A DNA stretch of 64,000 nucleotides from Nitrospiraceae bacterium (lineage in GTDB: Bacteria > Nitrospirota > Nitrospiria > Nitrospirales > Nitrospiraceae), in assembly GCA_050246315.1 (NCBI GenBank), contig JBFWWG010000002.1:460811-524810 (forward strand). The letters run 5' to 3'. The notes beneath the pieces were generated by a model that saw only the letters and a list, made by a program, of their open reading frames with translations, searched no databases and was not told the DNA's origin. Both the position numbers and the translations under genes were made by a program. This document shows positions 1-16,964 of this stretch, piece after piece; the stretch's first letter is position 1, and every line of letters starts with the position of its first letter.

Positions 1-1284
1 CATCACACGATCACGCAGCACCTGACGCTGCTCCGCCATTCTCATGGTTACCCCTCCGCCGAGCGTAATAATTGGCTCAGGTCTGGTGACCAGCGGCGTC
101 GAATCCTCCACGTATTGCGCGGTCTCCGGATGGTTCAGCAGGAAGTATGCCCAGGAACTGATGTTGTCGATGATACTCTGCGCCACGTACGGCCCCACTT
201 CCTCCTGAATCTGCGCCAGGGACTGCGTATAGAGATGAATCCAGATATTGGCCCCACCGCCCTTATTGAACAGCTCCTTGATATCGGGGTAGAGCACGTT
301 ATGGCCCTCGTCGATGTGCAGGCACAAGGGCGGAGTGAGCGCACGCCCGGAGGCAAACAGGCGTCCCACCAGGCTCTGAATCATGGAGATGAACACCTTC
401 GCGATAATATGCGCCGTCCGGCGCGTCAAGAGCGTCCCGGTATTGCACACCAGAATCACGCGCTTTCCGGATTCGAGCCGCCGAATGAATTCGTTCGTCT
501 TCGCTTTGCCGATGATCCGTCCGGTCGTGCCGAACGTCAGAGCGGACAACATGGTTTGCAGCGATGCGGACACCTTCGCGTAGAAGTCCTGCATATTCGG
601 GCCGTGGGTGATCTGATCGATCGCCAGACAGAGCTCCTCCGTCCCGGGGAGCGCCTGCAACGTATCGCGGAATTGCATCAGATCCTTGTGCCCCACCCGA
701 AGCTTCACGTCGTAGAAGGAGATTTGAGGAAGGATCCCCTTCGCCTTGGCGAGCACGATCAGCCCCGAGACCACCACCTGGGCCACCTGGGTCGCAATCG
801 CAATGTAGAAATCCTCCCGCGCCTTGATCCCAGAGACGATGTGATTCACCAGCTCGTCTTCCATGTAGTAACTCGACAACGGGTCCAGGTAAACCGACTC
901 ATCGGGAAAGATCGGCGTGAGCAGCATCAATTCCTCGAGCCGCCCGCACTCGGCCGCTGTCTGCACGACCTTTGAAAACAACTCGATATCTCCCTTCGGA
1001 TCGACCACGACCACCGAGTAGCCCTTCCTGATGTCCTGCTCGACGATATTCTCCATCAGGCGCGTCTTGCCCACCCGCGTGGTTCCCAGACACCCGAAAT
1101 GGCCACTCCGATCGGCATCCCGAATCGCAAACACACCTTCATGCCGAATGTCGTCGAGATTGGCGCCGAATCCCAACAACGTCAGGTCTGGATGAACTGG
1201 TCGCAGTCGACCCTTGCTGTTGAGCGCACGGAGTAGCTCCAACGAAGACGCCGTTTTCGCGGCCACGTTGCTTGATCCCGACAT
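1..1284 (-). CDS. traD: Type IV conjugative coupling protein (TraD/VirD4-like), runs off the window's left end
   Basis: Manual translation (absent from ORF track): MSGSSNVAAK...GHFGCLGTTRVGKTRLMENIVEQDIRKGYSVVVVDPKGD (Walker A + DPKGD) ... LHIDEGHN (Walker B) ... YTQSLAQI. Confidence 0.85.
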   Translation of the reverse strand, partial: MSGSSNVAAKTASSLELLRALNSKGRLRPVHPDLTLLGFGANLDDIRHEGVFAIRDADRSGHFGCLGTTRVGKTRLMENIVEQDIRKGYSVVVVDPKGDIELFSKVVQTAAECGRLEELMLLTPIFPDESVYLDPLSSYYMEDELVNHIVSGIKAREDFYIAIATQVAQVVVSGLIVLAKAKGILPQISFYDVKLRVGHKDLMQFRDTLQALPGTEELCLAIDQITHGPNMQDFYAKVSASLQTMLSALTFGTTGRIIGKAKTNEFIRRLESGKRVILVCNTGTLLTRRTAHIIAKVFISMIQSLVGRLFASGRALTPPLCLHIDEGHNVLYPDIKELFNKGGGANIWIHLYTQSLAQIQEEVGPYVAQSIIDNISSWAYFLLNHPETAQYVEDSTPLVTRPEPIITLGGGVTMRMAEQRQVLRDRVM

Positions 1285-1513
1285 ACTCCGGTACTACCAC
1301 CGTCCCGATCTCCATGACGCCCCATTCCCACTCCCACCCATCAGAACGCCCGATCATTTCCCCACATTCCGGTCTGAACCAGAGAGCGGCCCTGGTACCT
1401 CATCGACCCTGATGTTCTCGAACACGCAGACTGGCATGCACAGGAAGTAATTCTGGATAGGGAGCCTTCACCGTTCGATATCCGACCACCTTCAACACAG
1501 CGACAGGTTACTG

Positions 1514-3769
1514 ATGACGACCCACACCACGAATTCCGTGCCAGGAGCCACCCATGAACGCAGTCCCCTCTCGGAGAACGCTCTCACCGTCCTCCGCGAA
1601 CGGTACCTGGCCAAGGACGATCATGGGACTCCGATCGAGACGGTGGACCAGCTCTGGGAGCGCGTCGCTCGCGAGATTGCCGTTGTCGAGACCTTGTACG
1701 GTGCGACGGCCGAGGAGGTCGACTCGGTCCAGGAGCAGTTCAGGCATCTGCTCGCCTCTCGAAAATTCCTGCCTAATTCCCCCACCCTCATGAACGCCGG
1801 CCGCGCCGGAGCCCACAAACAATACTCCGCCTGCTTCGTCATCCCCATCGAAGACGACATGGAGTCCATTGGGAACGCCGTGACAGCCGCGTTGCTGATT
1901 CACAAGAGCGGAGGAGGTACGGGATTTTCGTTCTCTAAGTTGCGTCCGAAGGGCGATCGCGTGAGGAGTTCGGGCGGCGTGGCGTCCGGCCCGGTCTCCT
2001 TCATGAAGATCATCGACGGCGCCACCGAACAGGTACGCCAGGGTGGAACCCGCAGGGGGGCGAACATGGGCATTCTCCACGTCCAGCACCCGGACATCTT
2101 GGACTTCGTGAGTTGCAAGACTCAGGACGGCCAGATCCGCAACTTCAACATCAGCGTGGCCGCCACCGACGAGTTCATGACAGCGGTCAAGGAGGACAGG
2201 CCCTACGCCCTGATTAATCCCCGCACGAAGCACCCTGTCCAGGAAGTCTCCGCACGGCTGGTCTTCGATCGCATCGTCGAGGAGGCCTGGAAGACCGGCG
2301 ATCCCGGGCTTTTCTTCATTGACCGCGCGAACCGGGCCTGCCCCATTCCCGCGATGGGCGAAATCGTCTCGACCAATCCCTGCGGTGAGATCCCTCTGCA
2401 TGGCTTCGATGCCTGCACGCTCGGCTCGATCGATCTGGCCAAACATCTTCGTCTCCAGCCCGGCCAGCGCCACTACGAGATGGACTGGGGTAGCCTCGAC
2501 CAGACGATCCGACTCGCGGTTCGATTCCTGGACAATACCATTGATGCCAACGACCATCCGCTTCCCGAGATCAACAGCATGACGCGACACACCCGCCGCA
2601 TCGGCCTCGGGATCATGGGCTATGCCCGGTTGTTGATGGCCTTGGGCCTTCCCTACGGGAGCGAAGAAGCCCTCCGAATTACGGAGCGGACCGCGGACCG
2701 GATGAAAGCCATGGCTTGGCGAGCGTCAGAGGAATTGGCCCACACACGAAGCGTCTATCCCGCTTGGAATGGAAGCACGCATGAACAGGAAGGGAGAAAG
2801 GTCCGCCACAGCTACGTCACGACCGTGGCGCCGACAGGCAGCATCAGCATGATCGCCGATACGAGCGCGGGCTGTGAGCCCGAGTTCGCGCTGGTCTGGT
2901 TCAAGCAGGTCCTCGAAGGCAAGAAGCTCCCCTACCTGTGCGACCTCTTCGAAGCCACGGCCAGGCGCGAAGGCTGGTGGCACGATCATCTCCTCGACAA
3001 GATCGCCGCCAACCACGGGTCTTGCCGTGGGCTCCAGGAAGTCCCTGACCACTGGCAAAACGTCTTTACCGTGGCTCACGATCTCACCCCTGAGCAGCAT
3101 GTCCGGGTCCAGGCTGCCTGGCAGCGCTTTAGCGACACCGCCGTGAGCAAGACCATCAACCTGCGAGGCACGTCCACGATAGAAGATGTCCGCCACGCCT
3201 ACCTGCTCGCCTGGGAACTCGATTGCAGCGGTATCACGGTCTACCGCGATGGGAGCCGCGCCAACCAGGTGCTGAATCTCGGCAAGGCGGACAGCGATGG
3301 GAAGGTTCGCGATCACGGAGCAAGCGAGGCGGAGGACGGAGACCTCCCTGTCGCCAACCCCTTCGAGCTACCGGATGTCCTGGACGCGAAGCGCGTGCAT
3401 GTGAACACCACCGATGGTCACGTCTACGTCACGATTTCGACCTTCAGGACCAGGCCGATCGAGGTCTTCATCCACACGCCCGTCGAGGCCAGCAACGCTG
3501 AAATCTACGAATCCTTTGCGCGGGTGCTCTCCATCTCCTTACGATCGGGGGTGCCCGTGGAGGCCTTGCTCGAACAACTCGAAAAAGCCAACCAACGATA
3601 CGGATCGGTCGCAAGCATCCCAGCCGCCATCATCCGAGCACTCCGCATGAGCCAACTGGTCAAAGAGAACGGCAACGGCCTCCCTCCCTGCCCGCAATGC
3701 GGCCAGAGCACCATTCGGCAGGAGAACTGCCTCGTGTGCCGGCAATGCGGCTGGACCAAGTGCAGCTGA
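1514..3769 (+). CDS. nrdJ: Adenosylcobalamin-dependent (class II) ribonucleotide reductase with C-terminal TSCPD-like domain and Zn ribbon
   Basis: NSPTLMNAG, SACFV, RRGANM, TNPCGE, TVAPTG, SKTINL; terminal CPQCG...CRQCGWTKC; no adjacent beta-subunit gene. Confidence 0.92.
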   Translation: MTTHTTNSVPGATHERSPLSENALTVLRERYLAKDDHGTPIETVDQLWERVAREIAVVETLYGATAEEVDSVQEQFRHLLASRKFLPNSPTLMNAGRAGAHKQYSACFVIPIEDDMESIGNAVTAALLIHKSGGGTGFSFSKLRPKGDRVRSSGGVASGPVSFMKIIDGATEQVRQGGTRRGANMGILHVQHPDILDFVSCKTQDGQIRNFNISVAATDEFMTAVKEDRPYALINPRTKHPVQEVSARLVFDRIVEEAWKTGDPGLFFIDRANRACPIPAMGEIVSTNPCGEIPLHGFDACTLGSIDLAKHLRLQPGQRHYEMDWGSLDQTIRLAVRFLDNTIDANDHPLPEINSMTRHTRRIGLGIMGYARLLMALGLPYGSEEALRITERTADRMKAMAWRASEELAHTRSVYPAWNGSTHEQEGRKVRHSYVTTVAPTGSISMIADTSAGCEPEFALVWFKQVLEGKKLPYLCDLFEATARREGWWHDHLLDKIAANHGSCRGLQEVPDHWQNVFTVAHDLTPEQHVRVQAAWQRFSDTAVSKTINLRGTSTIEDVRHAYLLAWELDCSGITVYRDGSRANQVLNLGKADSDGKVRDHGASEAEDGDLPVANPFELPDVLDAKRVHVNTTDGHVYVTISTFRTRPIEVFIHTPVEASNAEIYESFARVLSISLRSGVPVEALLEQLEKANQRYGSVASIPAAIIRALRMSQLVKENGNGLPPCPQCGQSTIRQENCLVCRQCGWTKCS

Positions 3770-3799
3770 CGGTTTACCCATTATATAGAGAGGTCGGTC

Positions 3800-4405
3800 A
3801 TGCCTCCCCAGTCGCTTCCACCATCCGTCCCGCTCAACGCGGCGACCATGACGCCGAGAACGGATCAGAACGTCGGGCTTCAGGTCGGATGGACCGTGGT
3901 CTACCGCGATGCTAACGACCGACTGCAGGATGGCAGGATCATCGAGATCCTCGACCCGAGCGCAAACGGCCGCGTCAATCTGGATTCCGGGGTCACCCTC
4001 CCCATTGCCAAGATCACCGCCGTCAAGGCCGTCGATCAAGCCGGCCACTGCCTCGCCGCCTGGACCGTCAACCCGCACGGCTACGATGGCACCAGGTCCG
4101 CCACTGTCCCGGTGCTCACCGGTCCGGACCGGTGGCTCAAACGGTTCCGCCGCTTGGCCGAACTCACCGCCGGCATCACCAGCAACGATCCACGATTCCC
4201 TTCTATCATGCAACTCCTTAACCAATGCGACAAGGCCTATGTCCGCGGCCAGGACGAATCGTTCATTCAGTGCGCGCGCCAAGTCGTCGCACTCGTCAAC
4301 GCTCCCGTCTCCAGACAAACCGCTTCCACCGAATCCGGCGAGCGTGCTCCATCTCAACGAGCCGCCCAGCGACCGTCACAGTCATCCGATCCTTCCCCCA
4401 CGTAA
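3800..4405 (+). CDS. Hypothetical protein (ICE cargo)
   Basis: GAGG RBS, co-oriented with neighbours, coding-like codon pattern. Confidence 0.7.
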   Translation: MPPQSLPPSVPLNAATMTPRTDQNVGLQVGWTVVYRDANDRLQDGRIIEILDPSANGRVNLDSGVTLPIAKITAVKAVDQAGHCLAAWTVNPHGYDGTRSATVPVLTGPDRWLKRFRRLAELTAGITSNDPRFPSIMQLLNQCDKAYVRGQDESFIQCARQVVALVNAPVSRQTASTESGERAPSQRAAQRPSQSSDPSPT

Positions 4406-4453
4406 CCGTCTCCTCAGTCTCTCTCGCATCGACCCATCACGAAGGAGCATGCC

Positions 4454-5980
4454 ATGCAGACTTCCATGCCTGATCTCGTGGCGCAGTTCGTCCGCGCCCG
4501 CAGGGTCTCCGTTCCTCTGCTCGCCATCACCACACCAGATCCTGCCGCCACGATCGGCCTGATCCGGACCTACGGGTTGCGCAGTCCCGGCTCCGATCAG
4601 GAAGACCCCGTTTTTTCCTGGGACGTCAGCCGAGGGCTCATGCCGGTCAACAGCGCGGCGGACAAGGCCTTGGCTGCGCTGCTGGGAACAGGCAAAGCCA
4701 ACGTCACGATCAATCCCTCGGAAACCCTCAAGCTCCTCGCGAATGTGCCCCCGAAGAGCGTGGTGTTCTTTCACAATGCCCACCGCTTCATTCGCAACGA
4801 GTTTGTCTCGCAAGGGATCTGGAATCTGCGCGATGTCTTCAAAGGGAAACCGGCGATCCTCGTCTTGCTGGCTCCCGCCATCGACGTGCCGACGGAACTC
4901 TTCCATGATCTGCTGGTCCTGGAAGAAACCTTGCCAGGCCGGGAGCAACTGGCCGCGACCATCAAGGACCAATGCGTCCAGGCGCAGATCGAGCCTCCCT
5001 CCGAAGACGTCATGGCTCAGGCAGTCTCAGCCCTCCAGGGGCTCGCCGCCTTTCCGGCCGAACAGGTCGTGGCCCTCTCGCTCGGCAAAGCGAAGGGCCT
5101 CAACCTGGCGCGGCTCTGGGAACGGAAACGGCAAATGATCAACGCGACACCCGGCCTCTCCGTGTGGAGCGGGAACGAACGGTTTCAGGATATCGGCGGC
5201 GTGCAAGCCGCCAAAGACTTCCTGGTCAGGCTCTTCACCGGCAATGCTCCACCGAAGGCCGTCGTCTTCCTGGATGAGATCGAGAAGATGTTCAGCGGCT
5301 CCCTGTCCTCCAATCAGGATACGTCGGGCGTCACCGTCTCCATGTTGGGCACGCTGCTCACCTACATGCAAGACCACAAGGCGAGAGGCATCATCTTCGT
5401 CGGCCCGCCAGGGACCTGCAAATCCATGGTGGCCAAAGCCAGCGGCACGGAAGCCGGGGTGCCAGCGATCTGCTTCGACCTCGGCGCCATGAAAGCCTCG
5501 CTCGTGGGTCAATCGGAAGGCCAGCTGCGGCAAGCGCTCAGCGTCGTCAGCGCCGTCGCCGAAGACAATGTGCTGTTCATCGCTACCAGCAACAATGTGA
5601 GCGCCCTCCCCCCGGAGCTGCTCCGCCGCTTCAAATACGGCATCATGTTCTTCGACCTGCCCTCCGCCTCGGAGCGGGACAGCATCTGGGGCATCTATCG
5701 CAAACAGTTCCGGATCCCGGCTGAGATGGCCCAGCCGCCAGACCAGGGCTGGACCGGCGATGAGATCCGGACCTGTTGCGAGCTGAGCTGGCAGCTCGGA
5801 TGCTCCCTGGAGGAAGCCAGCGCCTACATCATCCCCGTCTCGATCCGCGCCGCGGACCAGCTCAAGGAGCTGCGCTCGCAAGCCAATTACCGGTACCTCT
5901 CCGCTAGCTACCCGGGCCCCTATCTCATGGACAAGGCCGAAGCGGCCCAGGGACCGAGCCCTCGCATGTACGTGGCCTAG
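4454..5980 (+). CDS. Ycf46-like AAA+ ATPase with internally swapped Walker B/Walker A blocks
   Basis: AAGGAG RBS; FQDIGG, VVFLDEIEK, GIIFVGPPGTCKS, SLVGQSE, FIATSNN, LPPELLR, FFDLP. Confidence 0.88.
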   Translation: MQTSMPDLVAQFVRARRVSVPLLAITTPDPAATIGLIRTYGLRSPGSDQEDPVFSWDVSRGLMPVNSAADKALAALLGTGKANVTINPSETLKLLANVPPKSVVFFHNAHRFIRNEFVSQGIWNLRDVFKGKPAILVLLAPAIDVPTELFHDLLVLEETLPGREQLAATIKDQCVQAQIEPPSEDVMAQAVSALQGLAAFPAEQVVALSLGKAKGLNLARLWERKRQMINATPGLSVWSGNERFQDIGGVQAAKDFLVRLFTGNAPPKAVVFLDEIEKMFSGSLSSNQDTSGVTVSMLGTLLTYMQDHKARGIIFVGPPGTCKSMVAKASGTEAGVPAICFDLGAMKASLVGQSEGQLRQALSVVSAVAEDNVLFIATSNNVSALPPELLRRFKYGIMFFDLPSASERDSIWGIYRKQFRIPAEMAQPPDQGWTGDEIRTCCELSWQLGCSLEEASAYIIPVSIRAADQLKELRSQANYRYLSASYPGPYLMDKAEAAQGPSPRMYVA

Positions 5981-6017
5981 CGGAAACTCTCTCGCTTCTC
6001 GTCTCGATGAGGTCCCG

Positions 6018-6332
6018 ATGCCTTGCTGGATGACCGTCACCACCACCGTCGAACTCAAAGCCGCCGATCAGACGCTCCTCACACAGGCCGCTGAACGGCT
6101 CGGCTGGACCGTGATTCCCGAGGGAGAGGTCCTTCGCATCCAGACACCCGACGGGATGACGCTCCTCGTGTCCGCCCAGTCGGCCGTAGTTCCCCGCGGC
6201 CAGGAAGAACTGGTCACGACGCTCCAACGATCCTACGCCCACCAGATTCTTGACAGCGTGGCCTCCCGATTCGGCTGGACACTCGAATCCACCGACAGCT
6301 CGGAATCCAATTTCGTCCTCAGCAAATTCTGA
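6018..6332 (+). CDS. Small protein, DUF1257/Ycf35-like by size, position and pattern
   Basis: T.VELK...LL.QA...LGW ... LQRSYA..I.......GW pattern, directly after the Ycf46-like ATPase. Confidence 0.65.
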   Translation: MPCWMTVTTTVELKAADQTLLTQAAERLGWTVIPEGEVLRIQTPDGMTLLVSAQSAVVPRGQEELVTTLQRSYAHQILDSVASRFGWTLESTDSSESNFVLSKF

Positions 6333-6355
6333 TATTCGCGAAGGAAGGAACCGTC

Positions 6356-6577
6356 ATGCACAGCCCTGACGCCATTCACGTGCACATCGCACAGGACGGA
6401 ACCCTGACGATCACCACGGACGACATCGGCATGCCCAACCACCGAGAGGCAGACGACTTACTCAACCTGCTGAACCAACTCGCCGGCGGCCAGACCGAAT
6501 CCATTCAGCGGCCCGAACGCCTCCTCCATGAACAGCACGACGACCATTCGCACCTTCACCACTCACATCGCGCATGA
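6356..6577 (+). CDS. Small protein, DUF2997-like, with His-rich tail
   Basis: IHVHIAQDGTLTITT...LNQLAGG pattern; tail HEQHDDHSHLHHSH; AAGGA RBS; ATGA coupling to next gene. Confidence 0.6.
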   Translation: MHSPDAIHVHIAQDGTLTITTDDIGMPNHREADDLLNLLNQLAGGQTESIQRPERLLHEQHDDHSHLHHSHRA

Positions 6578-7491
6578 GGTTCCCCATGGACACCCCACAA
6601 GCCTCCCTGTCCGCACTCTGGAAAAACGCGGTTTGCCTCGTCCTCACGTTACGGAAACTCGGCATCAAGCGGACCGTCCGCCAGGACGTGCTCGCCATCG
6701 AGACCGACCGCGCCCTGGTCAAGGTGACCAAGGCGATCCTGGCCTGTCCTGAATACAAGGAAATCACGAAGCTGGATGCCCAGATCCGCAAGAAACTCTC
6801 CAGCTATACGCTGCCGTCTTCCCTCAGGCCGGGGATCTACCTCGTTCCCAATGCGCTCCTGGAAGAGGTCGATGAGCTCATCATGAACTTCAAAGAGAAA
6901 CGGGAGAGCCTGATCGACTATTTTGTGCAGGTCTACCCCAAGAGCAGAGAAGAAGCCCAACTCAAGCTGGCCGACCTCTACAACCCAGCGGATTACCCGG
7001 ACGTGGACACCGTCAAGGCGGGCTTTCTCTTCGAATGCCAATATCTGACGTTCGACCTTCCCGGAACCCTGAGTACCCTCAGCGAGCGGCTGCTGACGCG
7101 TGAGACCGAAAACGTCTCACAAAAAGTCACGCAGATGCTCGATGATGCCAAGACCACGCTGCGCGAGGCGATGGCCGAGCTGGTCGATCACCTGATGGAG
7201 CGACTCACGCCCAACGCCAATGGCAAGGCCAAGACCTTCAAGGCCGGCACGGTGACCAACCTGATGGACTTCTTGAACCGATTCGATGCGCGCAATCTCA
7301 GCCAGGATTTGGACTTACAGAAGCTCGTGAATCAGGCCGAGGGCCTCCTCTCCGGGATGGAACCGAGTCGCATCCGGAAGGACGAATCCGTGGCCACGGT
7401 CGTTCGCGAAGGGATGCGAGCGATCAAGTCCCAGCTGGATGAGCTACTGGTCGAGAAGCCGTCGCGCGTCTACGTGCTGGAGGATGAATAG
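6574..7491 (+). CDS. Hypothetical alpha-helical ICE protein (DUF3150-like)
   Basis: GIYLVP, YNPADYP motifs; translationally coupled. Confidence 0.65.
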   Translation: MRFPMDTPQASLSALWKNAVCLVLTLRKLGIKRTVRQDVLAIETDRALVKVTKAILACPEYKEITKLDAQIRKKLSSYTLPSSLRPGIYLVPNALLEEVDELIMNFKEKRESLIDYFVQVYPKSREEAQLKLADLYNPADYPDVDTVKAGFLFECQYLTFDLPGTLSTLSERLLTRETENVSQKVTQMLDDAKTTLREAMAELVDHLMERLTPNANGKAKTFKAGTVTNLMDFLNRFDARNLSQDLDLQKLVNQAEGLLSGMEPSRIRKDESVATVVREGMRAIKSQLDELLVEKPSRVYVLEDE

Positions 7492-7589
7492 GAGCGAGAT
7501 GCCGCTTCCCATTCCGGCATCTTCGTCACAGTAATACCTTCTCTGCCGGCGTCTCCATCACATGATCACGCCAAGGATCACAACCCGTC

Positions 7590-8612
7590 ATGAAGCTCTC
7601 GCCCGACGACATCCGCCGCGCCCGTTCCGTCAACCTCATCGAGCTCCTGATCGGGCTGGGCCACAAGCCCGTGTCCCGCCGCCCAGACCATGCCCTCTTC
7701 CACTCTCCCTTGCGTGACGACCGCCACCCGTCGTTTTCTGTCTCCCGTGTCAATGGCGCCTGGGTCTGGTACGACTTTGGCCCGGGCACGCACGGCGATG
7801 GCATCGAGTTCATCCAACAGACATTCCACCTCACATTTCCCGAAGCGGTGTGCAAGCTGCTTGGGGACTCCATGGCCCCCACTCATGGGCCAAGCCGATC
7901 ACCGTACAACTCGGACCGGGAGCGGCGACGGCGTATCGACCTGGCCCGGCAGGCCTATCACACAGCCAAAGCCAGCATGACTCCCCAGAAAGAAAAAGAA
8001 CTTCGCCAGTATTTCCTCTCTCGCAAGGTCCCGTACTATCCCCAGCTCGGCGCGGTCTGGATCGCCCGCGGCGAGACCAACACTCCTTACATTGGATTTC
8101 CGCTTCCCGGCCCGAACGCCCATTTCATGCAGGGCTTGGAATGCCGCGCACTCCATGAGGTTCCGCACGAGCTCCTTCGGACCACGATCGGGATCAAATC
8201 TCCCTGGATCGTGAAGCGCAAGGACGCGGCAGTCCTCGTCACGGAGAGCATTCTGGACTGTTTAGCCGGAGATGCGCTGTTCGGCCCCACGTTCACGCTC
8301 TGTGCCCTGAATGGGATCGGCAACGTCGGCAAACTTCCAGAGTACCTGACGCGCCTCCATGCGAAGATCGTCTACCTCGCGCTGGATAATGACCCCGAGC
8401 CTGACAAGGGTCCGAAAGCCCAGCAGGAGGCGATCGCGCTGCTCACCGGACTTGGCCTGCACGTGGTGGAAGTCCGAGTCCACCATCAGGCAGGCGTGAA
8501 GGACCTCCACAAACTTCTGCTTCGGATTCCGACCCGCATCTCGCCATTCCGCCTCACCGAGAGCGGCCTTCACCACCGGGCCTCACCGCGCGGGTCATTC
8601 ACCTTCGCGTGA
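7590..8612 (+). CDS. DNA primase-like protein (degenerate CHC2-type N-domain + Toprim)
   Basis: SPLRDDRHPSFSV...WYDFG..THGDGIEF; Toprim VTESILD ... LALDND. Confidence 0.8.
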   Translation: MKLSPDDIRRARSVNLIELLIGLGHKPVSRRPDHALFHSPLRDDRHPSFSVSRVNGAWVWYDFGPGTHGDGIEFIQQTFHLTFPEAVCKLLGDSMAPTHGPSRSPYNSDRERRRRIDLARQAYHTAKASMTPQKEKELRQYFLSRKVPYYPQLGAVWIARGETNTPYIGFPLPGPNAHFMQGLECRALHEVPHELLRTTIGIKSPWIVKRKDAAVLVTESILDCLAGDALFGPTFTLCALNGIGNVGKLPEYLTRLHAKIVYLALDNDPEPDKGPKAQQEAIALLTGLGLHVVEVRVHHQAGVKDLHKLLLRIPTRISPFRLTESGLHHRASPRGSFTFA

Positions 8613-10774
8613 CAGCACCAGATCGCTCAAGCCTGATCTTGCAAGGAGACTCCATGGACACGCGCCAGGTTCCGATCACGGCGTTTATCGAGACCTTCAG
8701 CGCGAGCCTCTGTGAATCCGCCGCCTCGCAGCTCAGGCCCATCTTCAGACCAGAGCACCGGATCCAGGCCCAGCCCATCTTGAATCGACTCAAGGAACCG
8801 CTCTGGCCTCCGCAAGCGGATGTCGCCGCGGCAACCGCCCTGGTGCTGCAACAGCATCGCGGCGCGCTCATCGTCGGAGAAATGGCGACGGGGAAGACCC
8901 GCACCTCGGTGGGGGCCTGTCTCATCCATGGCTCCCGACGCGTGCTGGTCATGGTACCGCCCCATCTCCTCCGCAAGTGGGAGCGAGAGATTAAACGCGT
9001 GCTGCCGGATGCTGCGGTCCATCAGCTGAAATCCCTCAGCAGCATTGATCTCGTCGCCCGGGCTCCCCTCCTCAACAATCGTCCCCTCTTTGCGATCATC
9101 TCTCGCGAAAAGGCCAAGCTTTCGTACGCCACGAAACCAGCCCTGGTGCTGCGACGCTGGAAAAACGAGCACGGACTCCTCGACCGCTTCTGCTGTCCCC
9201 ACTGCGGTGCAGAGGTTCGGGACGCCGACGACACGCCGCTGACGCCTAAGACCCTACCGGCTAAATCCACATGTCGCGCCTGTCGCTCTCCCCTGTACGA
9301 CTTCGATCCGAACGGGCCACGCCGGTACTCCCTGGCCGATTACATCTGCAAGAAGCACCCGACCTTGTTTGATACGTTGGTCGTGGATGAAGTCCATGAA
9401 CTGAAGGGCAAAGCCACCGCGCAGGGTATCGCCTTTGCGAACCTCATGAAGGTCACGGACCGCGTCATCGCATTGACGGGAACCCTGTCGAACGGACGCA
9501 GCACGTCGCTCTTCTATCTGCTGTGGCGTCTGATTCCCGGCCTCAAGTCGGCGTATCGTTTCCACGACGAATCCCGTTGGGTCGATGTCTATGGCGTCCG
9601 TGAGACCCGCACCACCTCCATTGATGTGGACCAGGTCGTCGAGCAGGGGACCCAGTCGAAACGGAAAGTCTACGTCACCATCCTGGAACGGCCGGGTATC
9701 TCGCCCAGGCTGATCCCTCAACTGGTCGATAAGGCCTGTTTCCTCCGGATGGAGGACCTGGACATCGCGCTCCCTCCCTATGAAGAGCATGTCGAGACCT
9801 GCCAACTCGAAGGCCAACTCAAGGAGCAGTACGAGCAGCTCCTCAAAGCGGCCAAGCCGTTGATCCGGGAGGCCAGGAAATCCCGTGACGGGCACTTGCT
9901 GTCCACGGTCGTTCAGGCGCTGGTGGCCTATCCAGACCGCTGCACCAACGAGGAACGGATCACCAATAAATTCGGAGAGGTCAAGCTTGCCCTTCCCCCG
10001 TTACCCGAGCTTGTCCGTTATCCGAAGGAACGGTTGCTCCTTCAACAGGTGGAGGACAACCTGAACCGGCATCGTCGGGTCCTCGTGTACTGCACCCACA
10101 CCGGGACGCGCGACATCACGCCGCGCCTTCATCTCATCCTGAAACAAGCCGGGTTCCGCACAGCCGTGCTCACGGCTTCCGTGCAAGCCGAGCGGAGGGA
10201 GGAATGGATTGAAGACCGGGTGAAGGCTGGCCTCGACGTACTGATCTGCAATCCCCGTCTCGTGCAAACCGGGCTCGATCTCCTGGATTTTCCCAGCCTG
10301 CGATTCTTCGAATCCGATTACAACATCCTGACGGTCCGGCAAGCCGCTCGCCGCTCCTGGCGACCGGGACAACAGCACCCGGTGGACGTGCGACCGCTCA
10401 TGTATGCCGGTACGGCTCAGGAACGGGCCTGGTCCCTGATCGCCAGCGGGATCAAGGCAAGCCTCTACACCGAGGGGGACATCACCAGCCAGGCGATGGC
10501 GGCATTCAATCAAGAGGACGACATCACTATTGGGCTGATTCGATTCATTCTCGACCAGAATCCTGAGCTCATGAGCGCGGAAAAAGCCTTCCGCGACCTC
10601 GCTCGGGCCTATAAGGACCAACGGGAAGTCATCGGCGCGTCACCCGCTCAGTCTCCATTCCATCACGTGGCCACAGCGCCGGCAGGGGAACAAGCGGTCA
10701 TCATCGCGACGACCGAGCCGGCTCCCGCGAAACTCCCGGATCTCTCCACGCAACTCGCTCTTTTCGCCGCCTGA
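8609..10774 (+). CDS. SNF2/SF2 helicase with Zn-ribbon insertion
   Basis: GEMATGKT, VVDEVHE, LTGT, VQTGLDL, QAARRSWRPGQ; CPHCG...CRAC insert. Confidence 0.88.
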   Translation: MTAPDRSSLILQGDSMDTRQVPITAFIETFSASLCESAASQLRPIFRPEHRIQAQPILNRLKEPLWPPQADVAAATALVLQQHRGALIVGEMATGKTRTSVGACLIHGSRRVLVMVPPHLLRKWEREIKRVLPDAAVHQLKSLSSIDLVARAPLLNNRPLFAIISREKAKLSYATKPALVLRRWKNEHGLLDRFCCPHCGAEVRDADDTPLTPKTLPAKSTCRACRSPLYDFDPNGPRRYSLADYICKKHPTLFDTLVVDEVHELKGKATAQGIAFANLMKVTDRVIALTGTLSNGRSTSLFYLLWRLIPGLKSAYRFHDESRWVDVYGVRETRTTSIDVDQVVEQGTQSKRKVYVTILERPGISPRLIPQLVDKACFLRMEDLDIALPPYEEHVETCQLEGQLKEQYEQLLKAAKPLIREARKSRDGHLLSTVVQALVAYPDRCTNEERITNKFGEVKLALPPLPELVRYPKERLLLQQVEDNLNRHRRVLVYCTHTGTRDITPRLHLILKQAGFRTAVLTASVQAERREEWIEDRVKAGLDVLICNPRLVQTGLDLLDFPSLRFFESDYNILTVRQAARRSWRPGQQHPVDVRPLMYAGTAQERAWSLIASGIKASLYTEGDITSQAMAAFNQEDDITIGLIRFILDQNPELMSAEKAFRDLARAYKDQREVIGASPAQSPFHHVATAPAGEQAVIIATTEPAPAKLPDLSTQLALFAA

Positions 10775-10815
10775 CCCATTTCATCTTCATCCTGTGGCTC
10801 ATCCGTGAGGCCAAC

Positions 10816-11409
10816 ATGACGCACGACCCTTCGAGTACGGTGGATGACGAACCAAAGATGCTCCGCGTCAACGGGTTCGACGCATTGATCGAATCCTATG
10901 CCTACCAGGACCTGCAGTCTTGTCTGTCACTGCGAGTCCTCTCATTGGTCGCTCGAGAGTCGAGCATGCGAGCGATTCGTGCCAACATGAGTCTCGGCCA
11001 TCAGGTCGACATCGACGGGGTCGGCTCGCTGTCCTGGCCCAGGCCCTCCGACCTGGAGATCCAGTCCTTTCACCGGCGGCTCCCTTCAGGACTCATCTCT
11101 TCCCTCTGGTTGCCCAAAAGGGCTACGGCCTACGGGATTGAGCCCAACAAGCCCGCGTACCTCATTGCCCCTGGTGGCACTGTCCCCGCGACCCCGTCCG
11201 GCTTCATCCCACTGCTCGACCGGCTACTGCCATTTCCGATTCTCGCTCCCTGGGCCGAGGCCCTGTGGCAATTCGGACTGGAGGCAGGATGGATCAGTCG
11301 CCTGAACGGACATAGGCTGCAGGCCTGGGAAGTCCATCCTCCGCGGACCGCCGTGCAGGAGTTCATCACAACCCAACTGCAAGCCCGCGCGCTACCCGTT
11401 CCCGTCTGA
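10816..11409 (+). CDS. Hypothetical protein (ICE helicase/methylase module)
   Basis: GAGG RBS; PFPILAPWAEALW motif; co-oriented. Confidence 0.7.
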   Translation: MTHDPSSTVDDEPKMLRVNGFDALIESYAYQDLQSCLSLRVLSLVARESSMRAIRANMSLGHQVDIDGVGSLSWPRPSDLEIQSFHRRLPSGLISSLWLPKRATAYGIEPNKPAYLIAPGGTVPATPSGFIPLLDRLLPFPILAPWAEALWQFGLEAGWISRLNGHRLQAWEVHPPRTAVQEFITTQLQARALPVPV

Positions 11410-11457
11410 ACTGAGCGGGGGAACCATCGTCCACCATTCACACGAGCGCCACACACC

Positions 11458-12543
11458 ATGAGAACGATCGCACGAGCGAAGGCGGGATTTTATCCGACAC
11501 CGGACCCAGTCACCCGGGCCATCTCCAAGCTGATCCAGAACCCCTCTCGCCATCCCGGCCGGCTCTGCGATCCCTGTTGCGGACTCGGGCAACCGGCCTC
11601 CACCCTCGCCCAGTCGCTGGGGCTGCTCAGCTTCGGGATCGAACTGGAGAGATCCCGATTCCAGGCCTCAAAGCTCCTCCTCACTGACACGCTCCGCTCC
11701 GACGCCTTCGCCACCACCATCCAGAAGCAGAGCATGTCCCTCGTCTTCCTCAATCCTCCGTATGACGATGCCGGAAAACGCCAGCGCAGCGAACCCGCGT
11801 GGCTCCGGCTGCTCAGCCCGGCCCTGCAATCCGGAGGAGTGCTCGTCTTCATCCTTCCCGAGCCACGGGTGACGAAGGAGATCCGCCGCTATCTGGCCAC
11901 CCATTTTCGACAGGTCGCGTTCTTCCGGTTTCCTCATCCGGAGTACCTCTCCTTTCGCCAGGTCGTCATCTTCGGGATGAAGACCGCCTCGCCTTTACAG
12001 GATCGCAGACGCATCGATGCACTGGCGGCAGAGGTGATTGACTACCAGTCCCTCGAGGGCGACCTCACCCCACTCTATGCCATCCCTCCTCAAGTGGTTG
12101 CTGGACCGATCGAGTTTCGCAGTCACTGGGTCTCTCCAGAAGACCAGCTCGCCGAGGCCTCGGCGTACGGAATCTGGCAAGACCCCCGCATCCACGATGG
12201 GCTCCACTTCCCCGTCACTGGCCCCTGCATTCCCCTCATGCCGCTCAGAAAAGGGCATCTCGCGAGAATGATCGCGGCGGGCATGCTGAACAACCAGACG
12301 ATCGCGACCGGGCCCACTTGCTGGATCATCAAAGGCTTCACCGATAAGACCACCAGGCAACTGCCGCCTGAGCAGGAAGAATACGAGACCCAGAAGGGAC
12401 GCGAGACCCGCACCGTGACGCGCGTGATCGAAATGTTCGTGCCGCAGATCCAGGCCTGGGACATCACCGAAGGATCCACCTACGGCCAGCACATCATCGT
12501 CAATTGCAGCGATCATCGCGGAGAAGCGCCCGAGACACCATGA
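11458..12543 (+). CDS. SAM-dependent amino-methyltransferase (DUF6094-like)
   Basis: GFYPTP, DPCCGLG, GIELE, FLNPPY motifs. Confidence 0.85.
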   Translation: MRTIARAKAGFYPTPDPVTRAISKLIQNPSRHPGRLCDPCCGLGQPASTLAQSLGLLSFGIELERSRFQASKLLLTDTLRSDAFATTIQKQSMSLVFLNPPYDDAGKRQRSEPAWLRLLSPALQSGGVLVFILPEPRVTKEIRRYLATHFRQVAFFRFPHPEYLSFRQVVIFGMKTASPLQDRRRIDALAAEVIDYQSLEGDLTPLYAIPPQVVAGPIEFRSHWVSPEDQLAEASAYGIWQDPRIHDGLHFPVTGPCIPLMPLRKGHLARMIAAGMLNNQTIATGPTCWIIKGFTDKTTRQLPPEQEEYETQKGRETRTVTRVIEMFVPQIQAWDITEGSTYGQHIIVNCSDHRGEAPETP

Positions 12544-13322
12544 TCCCCAGCAACGACCCATTCACCAGCCAGAACTGCCAGACGCCCAGTCCCCTGACAC
12601 GAACCCGCAAGCGCGCACTCAAATCGGAGCGATCCTGCAAGGATTGCTGCAGACCCTTCCTGGGCACCGAGACGGCCCAGTATGGCCCCTGTTGCCGATG
12701 GAAGCATCGAGGGCCGACGGCGAAGAAATATGTCTGGACAGCAGAGCGAGAGCAGATACTTCGTGATCGGTACGATGGCACCATCAAAGGGCGCGCCGCC
12801 CAGATCGCCGCCATGCTCGGATGGCCGACCTGGGTGATCAAACGCCGCGCCGCCGAGCTCGGACTCACGTATCACGTCGATTCGCAGCCGTGGACCAAAG
12901 AAGAAGTGGCTTTTCTCCTGGAACACGTGGGCAGCCGCCTCCTGCCCTGGATCGCCAGGAAGCTGCAGCGATCGGTCACGTCCGTCAAAATGAAATGCCG
13001 CCACATGGAGCTGAGCCTGCGGTACCGAGAGGGTTATACGCTGCGCGAGCTTGAGCTCTGTTTCGGCTGCGATCATCGGGTGATCGAAGGATAGGTTCGC
13101 GAGGAGAAACTCCACACCCGCCGACGCGGCACCGACCGAGCCCACGACGCATGGTACGTGACCGATGCGGATCTGCTCCGGTTCATCACCGAGCATCCCC
13201 TGGCCTTCCAGCTGCGCAAAGTGGACCAGTTCTGGTTCATGGATCTCGTCACCAACGGCGGCCTTGTCCGAAAAGCCTTGCAGACTGCCTCACAGGATGA
13301 TGCTGATCATAGAGCCGCCTGA
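12540..13322 (+). pseudogene. DNA-binding-like hypothetical protein interrupted by one in-frame TAG (13092-13094)
   Basis: After ...HRVIEG* the frame stays open for 75 codons (VREEKLHTRRRGTDRAHDAWYVTDADLLRFI...WFMDLV...) to TGA 13320-13322; WT..E repeats in N-half. Confidence 0.7.
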
Positions 13323-13391
13323 CCTCTCGATTGCTTCGCGTGACGATTCCAAAATATCAATCACGTTCTCTCCAGCTACGTGGAGGTTGTC

Positions 13392-14525
13392 ATGAAGTTC
13401 ACGTGCACCCGCGGCATCCTGCTGGGCGCCATCCGGAATCTGCTCAGCCTCACCTCGACTAGGTCCACGCTCCCCATCCTTGCCAATGCCCTCCTGGAGA
13501 CCACGCCCACGGGCCTCAAGGTCTTGAGCACCGACCTCGAAACCGGATTCCAAGGCACCTACGACGCCAGCATCCAGAAACCCGGACGCGTCACCGTCAA
13601 CGCTCGTGCCCTCTGCGATGTGCTCAAGGAACTCGATCCCGAGCATCCCATCACCTGGCAGGCTGACGACAAACACGTGATCAGGCTCGTGTCCGGGAAC
13701 AGCCGCTTCACGCTCCACGGCCTGCCCGCGGATGACTATCCCCAGCTCCCTGCGTTTGATGAGCCCGCTCAGGTCAGCATCCCCAGCACCGATCTCCTCA
13801 CATGCCTGCAGCAGGTCCTTCCCGCTGTTCCCGATCAGGACCAACGGTTCGTCCTGCAGTCCGTGCTCGTCACCATCGGTACACAGCCTGCACAGGAATC
13901 ACCGGCGATCGAACTCGTCGGAACCGACGGGCACCGTTTGGCCATCGCTCAATCACTCGCCGGCAGGTGGATGACCTCCACGCCCCAGCAGCTCAGCGCC
14001 CTCATTCCCAAGAAAGCCGCTCAGTTGCTCGCCACGCTGCTCGCTCAGGAAAATGCGCTGGATGTTCCCATCGCCGTCTCCAAGAAACTCTTTTGCGTGA
14101 CCGTCAAGAACGTCATCCTGACGAGCCGCCTAGTCGAAGGGACTTATCCCAACTACCAGCAAGTGATCCCGATCGTGAACGGTGCGCGTATGGAGATCGG
14201 CCGCGAAATCTTCGAAGAGGCGCTCCACCGAGTGGCTGTGGTGTCCCGCGACCATACCCAAGCCGTGCGTCTGGCTCTGACGCCTGACACCCTTACGATC
14301 CATGCCCAGAATGCGGACGTCGGGGAAGGAACTGAAAGTATCCCGGCTGTCGTCGCCGACAAGGAATTCAAGGCTGGCTTCAACGCCCGCTATCTGCTGG
14401 ACGCGCTTCGGACCTGTCCAGGCGAGCGCCTTCAACTGCATATGAAGGAACCGCTCAGTCCTTGTGTCCTCGTGTGCCCTGGCAGGCAGACTGGCTGGAA
14501 GCACGTGATCATGCCGGTCCGCTAG
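13392..14525 (+). CDS. dnaN: DNA polymerase III beta sliding clamp (element-borne copy)
   Basis: STLPILANAL, STDLE, GTDGHRLA, SRLVEGTYPNYQQVIP, GFNARYLLD, VIMPVR; GGAGG RBS; not in a dnaA-recF-gyrB context. Confidence 0.93.
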   Translation: MKFTCTRGILLGAIRNLLSLTSTRSTLPILANALLETTPTGLKVLSTDLETGFQGTYDASIQKPGRVTVNARALCDVLKELDPEHPITWQADDKHVIRLVSGNSRFTLHGLPADDYPQLPAFDEPAQVSIPSTDLLTCLQQVLPAVPDQDQRFVLQSVLVTIGTQPAQESPAIELVGTDGHRLAIAQSLAGRWMTSTPQQLSALIPKKAAQLLATLLAQENALDVPIAVSKKLFCVTVKNVILTSRLVEGTYPNYQQVIPIVNGARMEIGREIFEEALHRVAVVSRDHTQAVRLALTPDTLTIHAQNADVGEGTESIPAVVADKEFKAGFNARYLLDALRTCPGERLQLHMKEPLSPCVLVCPGRQTGWKHVIMPVR

Positions 14526-14537
14526 GTGGAGGCTGCG

Positions 14538-14789
14538 ATGCCCAGCACCCCTCCTTCAACAATACCGGTCAGTTGGGGGTGGACCTCCTACCGACGCACC
14601 CGGTGGATCAATCAACAGGGACAGAGACTATACAGGGTCTGCCTCCAAAGCATCGAGGGTCAGAGACGGTACACCAGGTTCACGCTTCATGTCTGGGCTC
14701 GCCGCCCCGTCTATGCCCTACGGACATTGTGTAATGAGAAGAAAAGCGAGGAGGAACTTCTCCGGTACGACTGGGCGTCCCTTGATTAG
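14538..14789 (+). CDS. Small hypothetical protein
   Basis: GGAGG RBS before ATG, follows dnaN. Confidence 0.45.
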   Translation: MPSTPPSTIPVSWGWTSYRRTRWINQQGQRLYRVCLQSIEGQRRYTRFTLHVWARRPVYALRTLCNEKKSEEELLRYDWASLD

Positions 14790-14950
14790 TCCTCTAACAG
14801 AATGTCACACCAGGTCTCCCCTGATCTCTGCTCCGTCCTTCCTAAATGGCACCCATCCAACCCGAGTACCTGATTTTGACGGTCCTCCAGTTCAATGTCC
14901 GGACAGAAATAGGTTGAAGAGGGGCACAAACCACCACGCGAGGTGCTCTC

Positions 14951-15175
14951 ATGAAACGGTTCCATGTCGTCGGGCTATTTCACCAAGCGCTGGCCAAGCA
15001 TGCGAAGCAACTGGCAGACGTGGAGGCCAACAAACTTTCTACCGCCCTGCGCCTGGCTGTCGCCCAAATGGAAAAACGAGAAGGGATTAGGAAGGTCAAA
15101 CACAAAGTCGTTCGATTCACCGTCATCATCAGCAACAAGCACGCTCCGGAAAACCCGCCCCTTCCGAATCTATAA
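14951..15175 (+). CDS. Small basic hypothetical protein
   Basis: GAGGTG RBS; 74 aa ORF. Confidence 0.45.
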   Translation: MKRFHVVGLFHQALAKHAKQLADVEANKLSTALRLAVAQMEKREGIRKVKHKVVRFTVIISNKHAPENPPLPNL

Positions 15176-15360
15176 AAACTCTCATTCTAGGACTGACACA
15201 CACGTGTTCACGTCCTTTCATCGGTGCGAGTACTTCGATCCTCCAGAATCCTGTTTCCGCAAGTCAGTAATACAGAGGAGAGACATGTGCGTACATCCGG
15301 GGAAGAGATGGGGTCAACGGAGCTAACGGATTCGTCCTGACTTCTTATCTGAGGCTCGTC

Positions 15361-15654: not shown

Positions 15655-15700
15655 TCTTTGCACTTTTACCGTTCAAAGCTTAGACTTCCGGGAAATCCTG

Positions 15701-16936
15701 GTGATACCGCCTATGGCACGTCTGCAAAAACAGCGTGGTATTTGGACGCTCGAATTTAAATGCCTCCCAGGATGCCCAAACCATCCTTCTGGCGGTCTCC
15801 GCCACCACCATTCCCTCAGAACACGTGATGCCAGCCTTGCAGAGGAACTTTTCAAAGACTTCAAGCGAAAGCAGGAGGAAGATCGAGCGCGTCTAACCTT
15901 GCGGCTCCCGGTCGCCCATCCCGACGCAAAGCGGACGATCAGTGTCGCAACGCAGGAATACTTCCGTACAATGGCTGTAGAAAAGAGTCCGGCAACGATC
16001 AAGCGCGTCGAACGCCCTGCGACGACGCATCTGATCAAGCTACTTGGTGACATTCCGATTCATACGGTCGATGCAACCAAGATAGGTAATTACCGTGCCA
16101 GGTTTCTTGAGAACCATGCCCCAGCCACGTGGAATAGTCGGCGGGCCACTCTTAGAGCCATGTGGAATTGGTTCCTGAGACGCGGGTGGGTCGATGAGAA
16201 TCCTTTCGTCGAAGTGGGCGAGGTGCCGGACTTCGAGGATACACACCGGCTCCAGCCTGTGGCGCAGACCCGCTTGGCTGATGTGCTTTCAGCCCTGCCC
16301 GACCGAGGCTGGCAGCTTGTAGCCCTTTTCCTTTATCAGTCTCTCTGCCGAATCGATGAGCTTTGCAATCTCCGCAGAGATGACGTTCTCCGCGAGGAGG
16401 GCGTGATCCGATTTCGAAGGCCGAAGGAGCGGAAGAACAAGCGCATCAGGTACAAATACGTCGCCTTGACACCAGAACTTCTGGACATCATCAACGAGGC
16501 TGAGTCTCGGTGTGCGAGCGAATACGTTTTCTCACGAATTGAACGAGAAGGCCGCGCATTAAAGCGTCGCAAGGTTCACCACGTGCTCTTTAAAGCCGGG
16601 AAGCGGGTCGGCCTTGTAGTGTCCCCACACAGATTACGAAAATCAGGGGGTACTCACGCGCTCCAAAGAGGGAGCGCAAGTCTAAAGACCGTTCAAGAGA
16701 TCATGGGACACAGCGATATCCGCACGACTGCTCGTTATTTGCGTCCAGACTTAGAGGAGCAGCGAATCGCTCTCTCTGGTCTGAATATTTCACGACTCAA
16801 GAACGTTCCGAACACAGTGTTTCAGCAAGAAGCCAGGCAACTGGTCCAGAAGGCGCAGGCCGCTAGAAAGCAGAAAGCCGCCGCCGGCCGTCGTCATTTT
16901 ACACACGCCGACAAAGATGAGAACACAAGCCCTTGA
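15701..16936 (+). CDS. Tyrosine recombinase/integrase of the ICE
   Basis: CRIDEL (R), PHRLRKS (HxxR), MGHSDIRTTARY (H, Y). Confidence 0.92.
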   Translation: MIPPMARLQKQRGIWTLEFKCLPGCPNHPSGGLRHHHSLRTRDASLAEELFKDFKRKQEEDRARLTLRLPVAHPDAKRTISVATQEYFRTMAVEKSPATIKRVERPATTHLIKLLGDIPIHTVDATKIGNYRARFLENHAPATWNSRRATLRAMWNWFLRRGWVDENPFVEVGEVPDFEDTHRLQPVAQTRLADVLSALPDRGWQLVALFLYQSLCRIDELCNLRRDDVLREEGVIRFRRPKERKNKRIRYKYVALTPELLDIINEAESRCASEYVFSRIEREGRALKRRKVHHVLFKAGKRVGLVVSPHRLRKSGGTHALQRGSASLKTVQEIMGHSDIRTTARYLRPDLEEQRIALSGLNISRLKNVPNTVFQQEARQLVQKAQAARKQKAAAGRRHFTHADKDENTSP

Positions 16937-16964
16937 CACTAGGTCTTCTTTTCTTCACAACACT

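Follow-up and report, generated by a model that had tools for sequence, protein, structure and literature searches.

In the 64,000-nucleotide (nt) stretch of a Nitrospiraceae bacterium genome that was analysed here (contig JBFWWG010000002.1, hereafter the window), the gene at 4454..5980 encodes an ATPase in which the Walker B motif lies ahead of Walker A. We consider it likely, and hold with good confidence, that this gene is a natural member of a large two-domain, Ycf46-like AAA family of tailed phages and integrated elements, that its product is built like p97 with two segments of the second domain swapped, and that it acts as an active remodelling ATPase.

Gene structure and motif order

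The gene lies on the forward strand, with an AAGGAG ribosome-binding site 8 nt 5' of its ATG, and specifies 508 amino acids and a stop codon. The first domain (D1; 4472..5146, residues 7-231) is an AAA-like alpha/beta domain with a helical lid, has its strands in canonical order and is without Walker motifs. It is followed by a segment (5147..5248, residues 232-265) which holds the inter-domain linker, the motif FQDIGG (residues 244-249, nt 5183-5200) and helix alpha0. Then come the two transposed blocks of the second domain (D2). Block B (5249..5383, residues 266-310) comprises the Walker B strand, a DTSG loop and the GTLLTYMQD helix, and block A (5384..5569, residues 311-372) comprises strand beta1, Walker A, helix alpha1, strand beta2, the motif SLVGQSE and helix alpha2. 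The rest of the D2 core is collinear (5570..5662, residues 373-403), with the sensor-1 strand, LPPELLRR and strand beta5. A helical lid and C-terminal region complete the domain (5663..5953, residues 404-500); AlphaFold2 places helices there at 405-418, 435-448 and 467-477, and the region aligns with the lids of classical AAA proteins in structure comparisons. All of these features share the strand of the gene.

Walker B reads AVVFLDEIEK (residues 269-278, nt 5258-5287), with the acidic pair D274 and E275, and is preceded by NAPPK. The DTSG loop, at the position of pore loop 2, and then GTLLTYMQD both lie between Walker B and Walker A. Walker A is GPPGTCKS (residues 317-324, nt 5402-5425, with its lysine at K323) in the local context ARG-IIFVGPPGTCKS, and 3' of it is found the pore-loop-1 motif SLVGQSE (nt 5498-5518, SLVG being residues 349-352), followed by LRQAL. 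Sensor 1, VLFIATSNN, spans residues 373-381 (nt 5570-5596, with N380 at nt 5591-5593); the arginines of LPPELLRR, R391 and R392, are encoded by nt 5624-5629, and FFDLP occupies residues 399-403 in strand beta5.

The motifs, with Walker B ahead of Walker A, are all in the single open frame 4454..5980. The initial annotation had described this as a reciprocal exchange of the Walker A and Walker B blocks in one frame, ie a non-circular permutation. Its motif order and coordinates were borne out when the open reading frame (ORF) was read again, and the exchange itself is supported by canonical relatives, which match the blocks in swapped order. When canonical relatives were scored by regular expression, Walker A came first in 222 of 229, and none had the reverse order (7 could not be scored).

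Homology of the two blocks

In a phmmer search of the PDB, Cdc48 was matched out of order. Query residues 310-376, from the P-loop to the end of helix 2, fell on chain residues 521-586, and query residues 266-316, from Walker B up to where the sensor-1 strand begins, fell on 579-629. The Pfam AAA profile (PF00004) was matched at 61.8 bits against a cut-off of 21.2 (E 1.2e-16), split into three stretches, the best of which laid residues 313-365 on positions 1-53 of the 131 in the profile. A sub-threshold match to Pfam AAA_2 placed residues 267-281, which come earlier in the protein, further along its profile, at 75-89. Out-of-order local matches of this sort had been anticipated in the initial annotation for a comparison with hidden Markov models. 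The collinear order of PF00004, from Walker A through pore loop 1 and Walker B to sensor 1, is not followed by the window protein.

Two phage proteins, L338C_050 of Rhizobium phage vB_RleS_L338C (P0271) and JP1_048 of Agrobacterium phage JP1 (P0270), carry the same motifs in the ordinary order, GPPGTGKS..SLVGQSE..APCVVMLDEVDKAF..GGDSGVSQ..LTHMQE..FWVASANR..LPSEFLRRGR. Canonical relatives are labelled by their sources as members of the SpoVK/Ycf46/Vps4 family. When the window protein was compared block by block with P0271 using BLAST, residues 270-310 aligned with 358-395 (46% identity, E 2e-7), residues 311-369 with 297-355 (47% identity, E 3.5e-16) and residues 373-418 with 397-443 (32% identity, E 7e-4).

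The same result was obtained with profiles. For this comparison, and for the analyses of conservation described below, the permuted family was represented by 149 sequences which are 38-57% identical to the query, except for one 92% copy. These were compared with 114 canonical sequences using hhalign. The first match (probability 100, E 3.7e-48) ran from query 7-489 to template 18-529 and took in the whole N-terminal domain, block A and the C-terminal part, leaving the Walker B block of each family as an unmatched insertion. The second (probability 97.8, E 9.4e-13) joined those Walker B blocks to each other, query ~264-312 on template 348-397. Weaker matches were also seen with tblastn against phage genomes, in which query residues 311-425 covered 155 residues of the target, which implies an insertion of about 40 residues in the target that the permuted protein does not have at this place.

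The edges of the blocks have moved along with them. The proline ahead of Walker B travels with block B (NAPPK here, AMAPC in the canonical proteins), and the glycine ahead of strand 1 travels with block A (ARG here, APKG in the canonical proteins). Judged from these sequences, the swap is a clean exchange of two adjacent segments.

Distribution of the permuted order

Homologues of the window protein are abundant. A word-indexed search scored 8000 candidates, of which 1071 had E<=0.001, and the 120 matches listed had 80-100% query coverage and 46-92% identity. An exhaustive search of 1.84 billion representatives yielded 7241 matches with E<=0.001, of which 3792 reached E<=1e-10 and 1216 reached E<=1e-30; with few exceptions, each of the 150 matches listed was a single collinear stretch. 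In a 13-sequence alignment the permuted order was present in all 12 homologues, whose source names are spread across several bacterial phyla and include Nitrospirales, Nitrospira calida, Deltaproteobacteria, Myxococcota, Gemmatimonadetes, Longimicrobium terrae and Terriglobia.

Scored by regular expression, Walker B came first in 258 of the 269 proteins of the permuted group and in none was the order reversed, 11 being unscorable. With a narrower pattern Walker B came first in 236 of 268, and in 28 others D-E or E-E stood at the same place. The order is also found in a cultivated phage, as gp103 of Tunturiibacter phage Tunturi_3 is a full-length member (36% identity, 97% coverage), and in a 93%-identical copy from another genome of the same genus as the window. 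Among 587 pattern-matching stretches in IMG/VR, 241 encode a relative, and 80 of these were kept, on viral contigs of 10-179 kilobases (kb).

The assembly from which the window comes is of the metagenome type, and a mis-joined contig or chimera, with a true gene of canonical order, was therefore weighed as an explanation. Contigs in Logan gave a direct check of the junctions. One of 4899 nt from run X1, possibly the source of the assembly, covers 4454-5791 without a difference. One of 421 nt from a different study covers 5302-5722, again without a difference, and crosses both the junction between blocks B and A (junction 2, ~5384) and that between block A and sensor 1 (junction 3, ~5570). A third study contributed a 198-nt contig which covers 5268-5465. 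Parts of the ATPase gene are without contig cover in runs X3, X4 and X5. Support across the junctions, which the initial annotation had named as a check, is thus partial: junctions 2 and 3 are crossed by contigs of other studies, and junction 1 (~nt 5249) is bridged only by run X1, as a chimera at that point would have it. Against a chimera stand the contigs that cross the other two junctions, the 258 relatives with the same order and none with the reverse, the cultivated phage, the 93%-identical copy and the 80 viral contigs. The permuted order is not an assembly artefact; a mis-joined contig is exceedingly improbable as its source, and the homologues effectively disprove the misassembly that the initial annotation had allowed for.

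Predicted structure

Structures were predicted with AlphaFold2 from the 149-sequence alignment, without templates, for the whole protein and for residues 232-508 alone. The predicted local distance difference test score (pLDDT) was 94.9 and the predicted template modelling score 0.90, the same for the whole protein and for D2 alone. All five core strands are present in the D2 model. In chain order its elements are a helix at 251-262; the Walker B strand at 269-273; helices at 276-284 and 293-307; a strand at 311-316, the P-loop and a helix at 323-334; a strand at 338-341 and a helix at 353-369; the sensor-1 strand at 373-379 and a helix at 387-392; a strand at 397-399; and the lid helices. Strand 269-273 and helix 293-307 have pLDDT values above 95, and DSSP assigns 269-273 to a sheet strand in both predictions.

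The D2 model was compared with 48,161 PDB representatives and gave 79 chains at Z>=8. Those at the top belonged to the classical AAA clade; Pex1/6 was also matched. Spastin (6p07_A) aligned at Z 16.1 with a root-mean-square deviation of 2.3 A over 197 residues, NVL (9bji_A) at Z 16.0 and 2.9 A over 206, Rix7 (7swl_A) at Z 15.6 and 2.3 A over 195, Vps4 (6ap1_A) at Z 15.2 and 3.0 A over 207, and FtsH (4ww0_A) at Z 14.9 and 2.6 A over 190. The D2 model has the AAA alpha/beta fold and lid, the spatial slot of the Walker B strand being deduced. When the whole model was used, it fitted the tandem D1-D2 of p97 (7lmz_C) at Z 19.2 over 403 residues, model 3..481 lying on chain 204..763, and many Cdc48, AFG2, NVL and Rix7 chains gave values similar to this.

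The AAA+ sheet has the spatial order 5-1-4-3-2, with all strands parallel. In the window protein the unit of strand 3 (Walker B), loop and helix 3 would run ahead of strand 1, P-loop, helix 1, strand 2, pore loop 1 and helix 2, so that the chain order becomes 3-1-2-4-5 in place of 1-2-3-4-5. Two connections are new, 3 to 1 and 2 to 4, and they cross the sheet in the same direction as the old ones, 3 to 4 and 2 to 3; the helices can therefore keep their face of the sheet, with right-handed crossovers. As neither the handedness nor the face of any connection would change, the order 5-1-4-3-2 can be kept with the Walker B acids facing the P-loop. The rewiring is geometrically permissible.

That strand 269-273 probably fills the canonical strand-3 slot follows from several features taken together: it belongs to the sheet and its pLDDT is above 95, the four remaining strands superpose well, no other candidate strand is available, and the D-E pair is conserved. 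Its placement between 373-379 and 338-341 was deduced and not seen in the coordinates. In the topology check envisaged in the initial annotation, the predicted fold was still that of a classical AAA domain, the strand-3 position being reasoned from the model.

This leaves room for a reading without any true permutation, in which the DEIEK block would, for example, prolong the D1 lid or form a subdomain of its own, leaving D2 with a core of four strands or one reduced in some other way. Alignments with single AAA domains leave 46-55 residues unmatched within the part of the model that they span, and sequential aligners cannot match both blocks together or show where the block lies. An order-preserving aligner must skip one block, and one of the swapped blocks is 45 residues long, so these figures are consistent with a swap without proving it; loops alone may explain part of the unaligned residues. 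A reduced core is nevertheless very unlikely. The block is homologous to the strand 3-helix 3 block of canonical proteins, 269-273 is a sheet strand at high pLDDT in two independent predictions, and the four remaining strands fit those of classical AAA domains at 2.3-2.9 A, with the strand-3 slot left to fill. Nor is there an acidic Walker B-like motif 3' of Walker A: regular-expression matches occur there in 4 of 268 proteins, all far downstream and unlike the Walker B consensus.

D1, in the AlphaFold2 model, has a beta-alpha pattern and lid in the canonical order. PLLAITTPDPAAT (TTPDPAAT) stands at the position of the P-loop and VVFFHNAHR (FFHNAHR) at that of hhhhDE. The domain is common to the canonical phage relatives, being included in the first hhalign match. 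R126 is invariant among the 149 sequences, and T27, D29, W56, D57, Q120, N124, K130 and D152 are present in at least 90% of them, which suggests that these polar residues form a binding site or an interface for some ligand. The presence of a motif-less AAA-like domain ahead of D2 was not part of the initial annotation, nor was the conserved phage module with a DUF3150-like gene that is described below.

Catalytic residues, inteins and activity

The catalytic set of an AAA protein, ie the Walker A lysine, the Walker B acids, the polar residue of sensor 1 and the arginine fingers, is present and conserved. E275, G320, K323, G352 and N380 are invariant in the 149 sequences, and D274, E277, K278, S324, V351, S354, R391 and R392 are at least 90% conserved. 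The least usual feature is Walker A itself. The family motif is GPPGxxKS, and the glycine of GK[ST] is a cysteine here and mostly alanine or serine elsewhere in the family (GPPGAAKS in 63 sequences, GPPGSAKS in 29 and GPPGSGKS in 24), which is unusual for an active P-loop. In the canonical phage relatives Walker A reads GPPGTGKS or GIPGSGKS. The window protein has L-V-G in pore loop 1, with no aromatic residue.

Inteins bear on the same question, as they typically favour essential catalytic motifs. Five long relatives (P0123, P0176, P0247, P0256 and P0267; 810-896 residues) contain inteins with LAGLIDADG or HNH homing endonuclease domains. In P0176, P0247 and P0256 the collinear match breaks at window residues 322-325, within the P-loop; in P0267 it breaks at residue 379, beside N380 of sensor 1; and in P0123 the intein is downstream of Walker A. 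A shorter protein, P0243 (653 residues), has its break at the position seen in P0267.

The substituted glycine, the non-aromatic pore loop and the pseudo-ATPase character of D1 would all suit a protein of permuted fold which has lost its catalysis and serves as a scaffold or regulator, perhaps binding nucleotide. We regard this as rather unlikely. The invariance of K323, E275 and N380, and the near-invariance of D274, R391 and R392, is the pattern expected for hydrolysis and not for binding alone; three members carry homing inteins within the P-loop; and the SLVGxSE loop is shared with the canonical relatives. On these sequence grounds D2 is probably an active ATPase.

Phylogeny and origin

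In a maximum-likelihood tree the permuted proteins were represented by 35 rows, ie the window protein and 34 chosen randomly after filtering by size, and the canonical ones by 38, ie P0270, P0271 and 36 random choices; the phage Tunturi_3 protein, P0269, was not among the rows. All of the permuted rows fell on one side of a single branch, giving one change of state, with a support of 100 in the Shimodaira-Hasegawa-like approximate likelihood ratio test. The same split and the same support were obtained when the columns for window residues 250-372 and the canonical insert were removed, leaving 374 columns. A single origin is consistent with the sequence data. The canonical order would be the ancestral one, solely because it is universal in AAA+ proteins.

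The exchange most likely arose once, from an ancestor with the canonical Ycf46-like order. One possible route would be a tandem duplication of the two-block unit, after which the outer copies were lost. The duplicated intermediate, A-B-A-B, was not found among the 269 proteins examined. Eight members are longer than 560 residues; each has at most one Walker A and at most one Walker B, and five of them are those with inteins. In another of these long members, P0194, the match starts at its residue 131.

Proposed mode of action

With D1 lacking nucleotide motifs and D2 having all of them, the protein would form a protomer like that of p97/Cdc48. It most likely assembles as a ring, in which D2 would hydrolyse ATP and R391 and R392 would act in trans on the neighbouring subunit. 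The SLVG pore loop and the D[ST]SG loop may pull or remodel a protein substrate, and D1 may be a scaffold or offer a platform for binding. The DUF3150-like protein encoded nearby may work with the ATPase as an adaptor or as a substrate. From the gene neighbourhood, the process served is likely to be early takeover or remodelling linked to DNA replication.

Several points weigh against this interpretation. To the substituted Walker A glycine, the non-aromatic pore loop 1, the deduced position of strand 269-273, the limits of sequential aligners and the coverage of junction 1 must be added that the tree is unrooted and holds no information on the ancestral order, that the duplicated intermediate is missing from the set examined, and that no experiment on any family member was found in that part of the literature which is openly accessible. 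Weighed with the evidence above, they leave an active, permuted AAA ATPase as the reading we prefer.

The DUF3150-like partner and other neighbours

The neighbourhood of the gene was studied in 81 loci, ie 80 viral loci from IMG/VR and the window. A DUF3150-like gene lies near the ATPase gene, on the same strand and usually downstream, in 79 of them, and the family has a length of about 315 residues. tblastn found DUF3150-like matches in 77 of the 80 viral loci. In the window this partner is the gene at 6574..7491 on the forward strand, which encodes a divergent helical protein of 305 residues. Its assignment to DUF3150 is indirect: the window copy has no match to Pfam PF11348 at E<=0.01, 22 of 68 aligned members of the partner family do match (best E 1.5e-11), and its look-alikes in the Atlas (score 0.97-0.98) belong to clusters in which 12-43% of members have DUF3150. 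Phage Tunturi_3 encodes a full-length homologue, gp96 (locus L001, 9693-10652; 30% identity). Its annotation as an 'HNH endonuclease' looks doubtful, and no Pfam model matches it at E<=0.01. A search of two phage genomes with the canonical order did not find a DUF3150-like gene. Prediction of a complex between the ATPase and the DUF3150-like protein scored 0.00 in two runs, which is evidence neither for nor against binding.

Between the two genes of the window are two small ones, also on the forward strand. That at 6018..6332 encodes 104 residues and has relatives between the ATPase and DUF3150-like genes in 32 of the 81 loci; that at 6356..6577 encodes 73 residues and has relatives in 19. Apart from the DUF3150-like gene and three small-protein families, no neighbour was found in more than 16 of the 81 loci, and the other large clusters of neighbours are opposite-strand ORFs which overlap the ATPase gene or its partner. 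Two small-protein families are seen near the DUF3150-like gene in viral contigs, one of about 152 residues (36 loci) and one of about 95 (33 loci). Examples of both occur in locus L006 (8692-9165 and 9221-9661); neither is present in the window, and neither has a Pfam match.

The host element

The ATPase gene is in a stretch with a G+C content of 0.59-0.63, which falls to about 0.55 beyond 14 kb. The genes around it encode a class II-type ribonucleotide reductase with a TSCPD domain (1514..3769), a primase (7590..8612), an SNF2-type helicase (8609..10774), a DUF6094 methyltransferase (11458..12543), a D5-like regulator (12504..13094), a DnaN clamp (13380..14525) and a tyrosine integrase (15701..16936). 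On the same contig, 5' of the window, are RecD-like helicase, Cas4-like nuclease and ParB-like genes. Positions 1-17000 of the window and the region upstream make up an integrated mobile element which ends near the tyrosine integrase gene. The ATPase gene was found in 3 of 41 related genomes, this one included, and is therefore accessory, carried on the mobile element. Over 40 kb 5' of the window, 37 ORFs were compared with PHROG and none reached E<=1e-5 against a structural family of phages, the RecD-like, Cas4-like and ParB-like matches being the only ones; the element may be a prophage or another kind of integrative element. The sole tRNA gene in the window is a tRNA-Ser (CGA) at 46926-47015; it lies about 30 kb from the integrase and is for that reason not an obvious attachment site.

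Comparison with known systems

The nearest known proteins are the Ycf46-like phage ATPases, with which, as with the classical type II AAA proteins, the window protein would share its ancestry and its way of working. They have the same build, in which a C-terminal AAA domain follows an N-terminal one devoid of motifs, are likewise borne by phages, and share the motifs GG..K, GPPGxxKS, SLVGQSE, DE[IV][DE]K, D[ST]SG, L[TI]xMQ[ED], A[TS]xN and LPxE[LF]LRR. Homology to this family extends over both domains of the window protein, whereas the chain order of the family is not kept. Canonical Ycf46-like proteins have a longer segment ahead of strand 1 and match Pfam AAA in one piece (positions 1-129 of 131), and the permuted proteins form a separate clan with about 21-24% overall identity to them. 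In BFVD the best structural matches to D2 were phage 'ycf46' proteins at 15-19% identity, and none exceeded 25%.

The anti-phage ATPase IetA/IteA (NF042959) was considered and rejected, the score being 26.6 bits against a cut-off of 510. A partial match to the PADLOC IetA model, over residues 370-442 (E 1.5e-7), reflects generic AAA similarity only.

Of the type II AAA proteins, p97/VCP, Cdc48, Rix7/NVL and AFG2 are alike in that the whole model fits the substrate-engaged p97/Cdc48 tandem at Z 18-19 over about 400 residues, and in that D2 has Walker A, Walker B, sensor 1 and the double arginine. Unlike them, the window protein has only 13-16% identity in structural alignments, a D1 without nucleotide motifs, no N-terminal cofactor domain, a permuted D2 chain and a pore loop 1 without an aromatic residue.

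Within the open literature searched, no AAA+ core with Walker B before Walker A was found described, and the same open sources yielded nothing on the ATPase family or on the function of DUF3150. We think it reasonably probable, if by a lesser degree of confidence than the assignment of the gene itself, that this is a natural non-circular permutation of the core of an AAA+ motor, undescribed in the open literature, fixed once and active in thousands of phage and mobile-element genomes, in which the linker is joined directly to the Walker B/pore-loop-2 element and which forms a new module with the DUF3150-like protein. P-loop ATPases are taken always to have Walker A ahead of Walker B, and this rule is built into domain models and annotation. 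If a large natural family breaks the rule and keeps the fold, the AAA+ core tolerates a rewiring of its central strands, and the fragmentary recognition by Pfam is explained. Protein evolution and design would gain a natural test case of non-circular permutation, with both orders present in related phage proteins and interconvertible at the bench. It would also point to an unstudied and widespread phage module of ATPase and DUF3150-like protein, one that is available in a cultivated phage and its host.

Natural reordering of motifs throughout a family, with fold and activity kept, has a precedent in the circularly permuted GTPases YlqF/RbgA and YjeQ/RsgA. There the whole domain is circularly permuted, with new termini and the motif order G4-G5-G1-G2-G3. 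The window protein differs in that two adjacent internal segments are swapped while the termini of the domain are unchanged, and in that the fold is that of the ASCE/AAA+ proteins.

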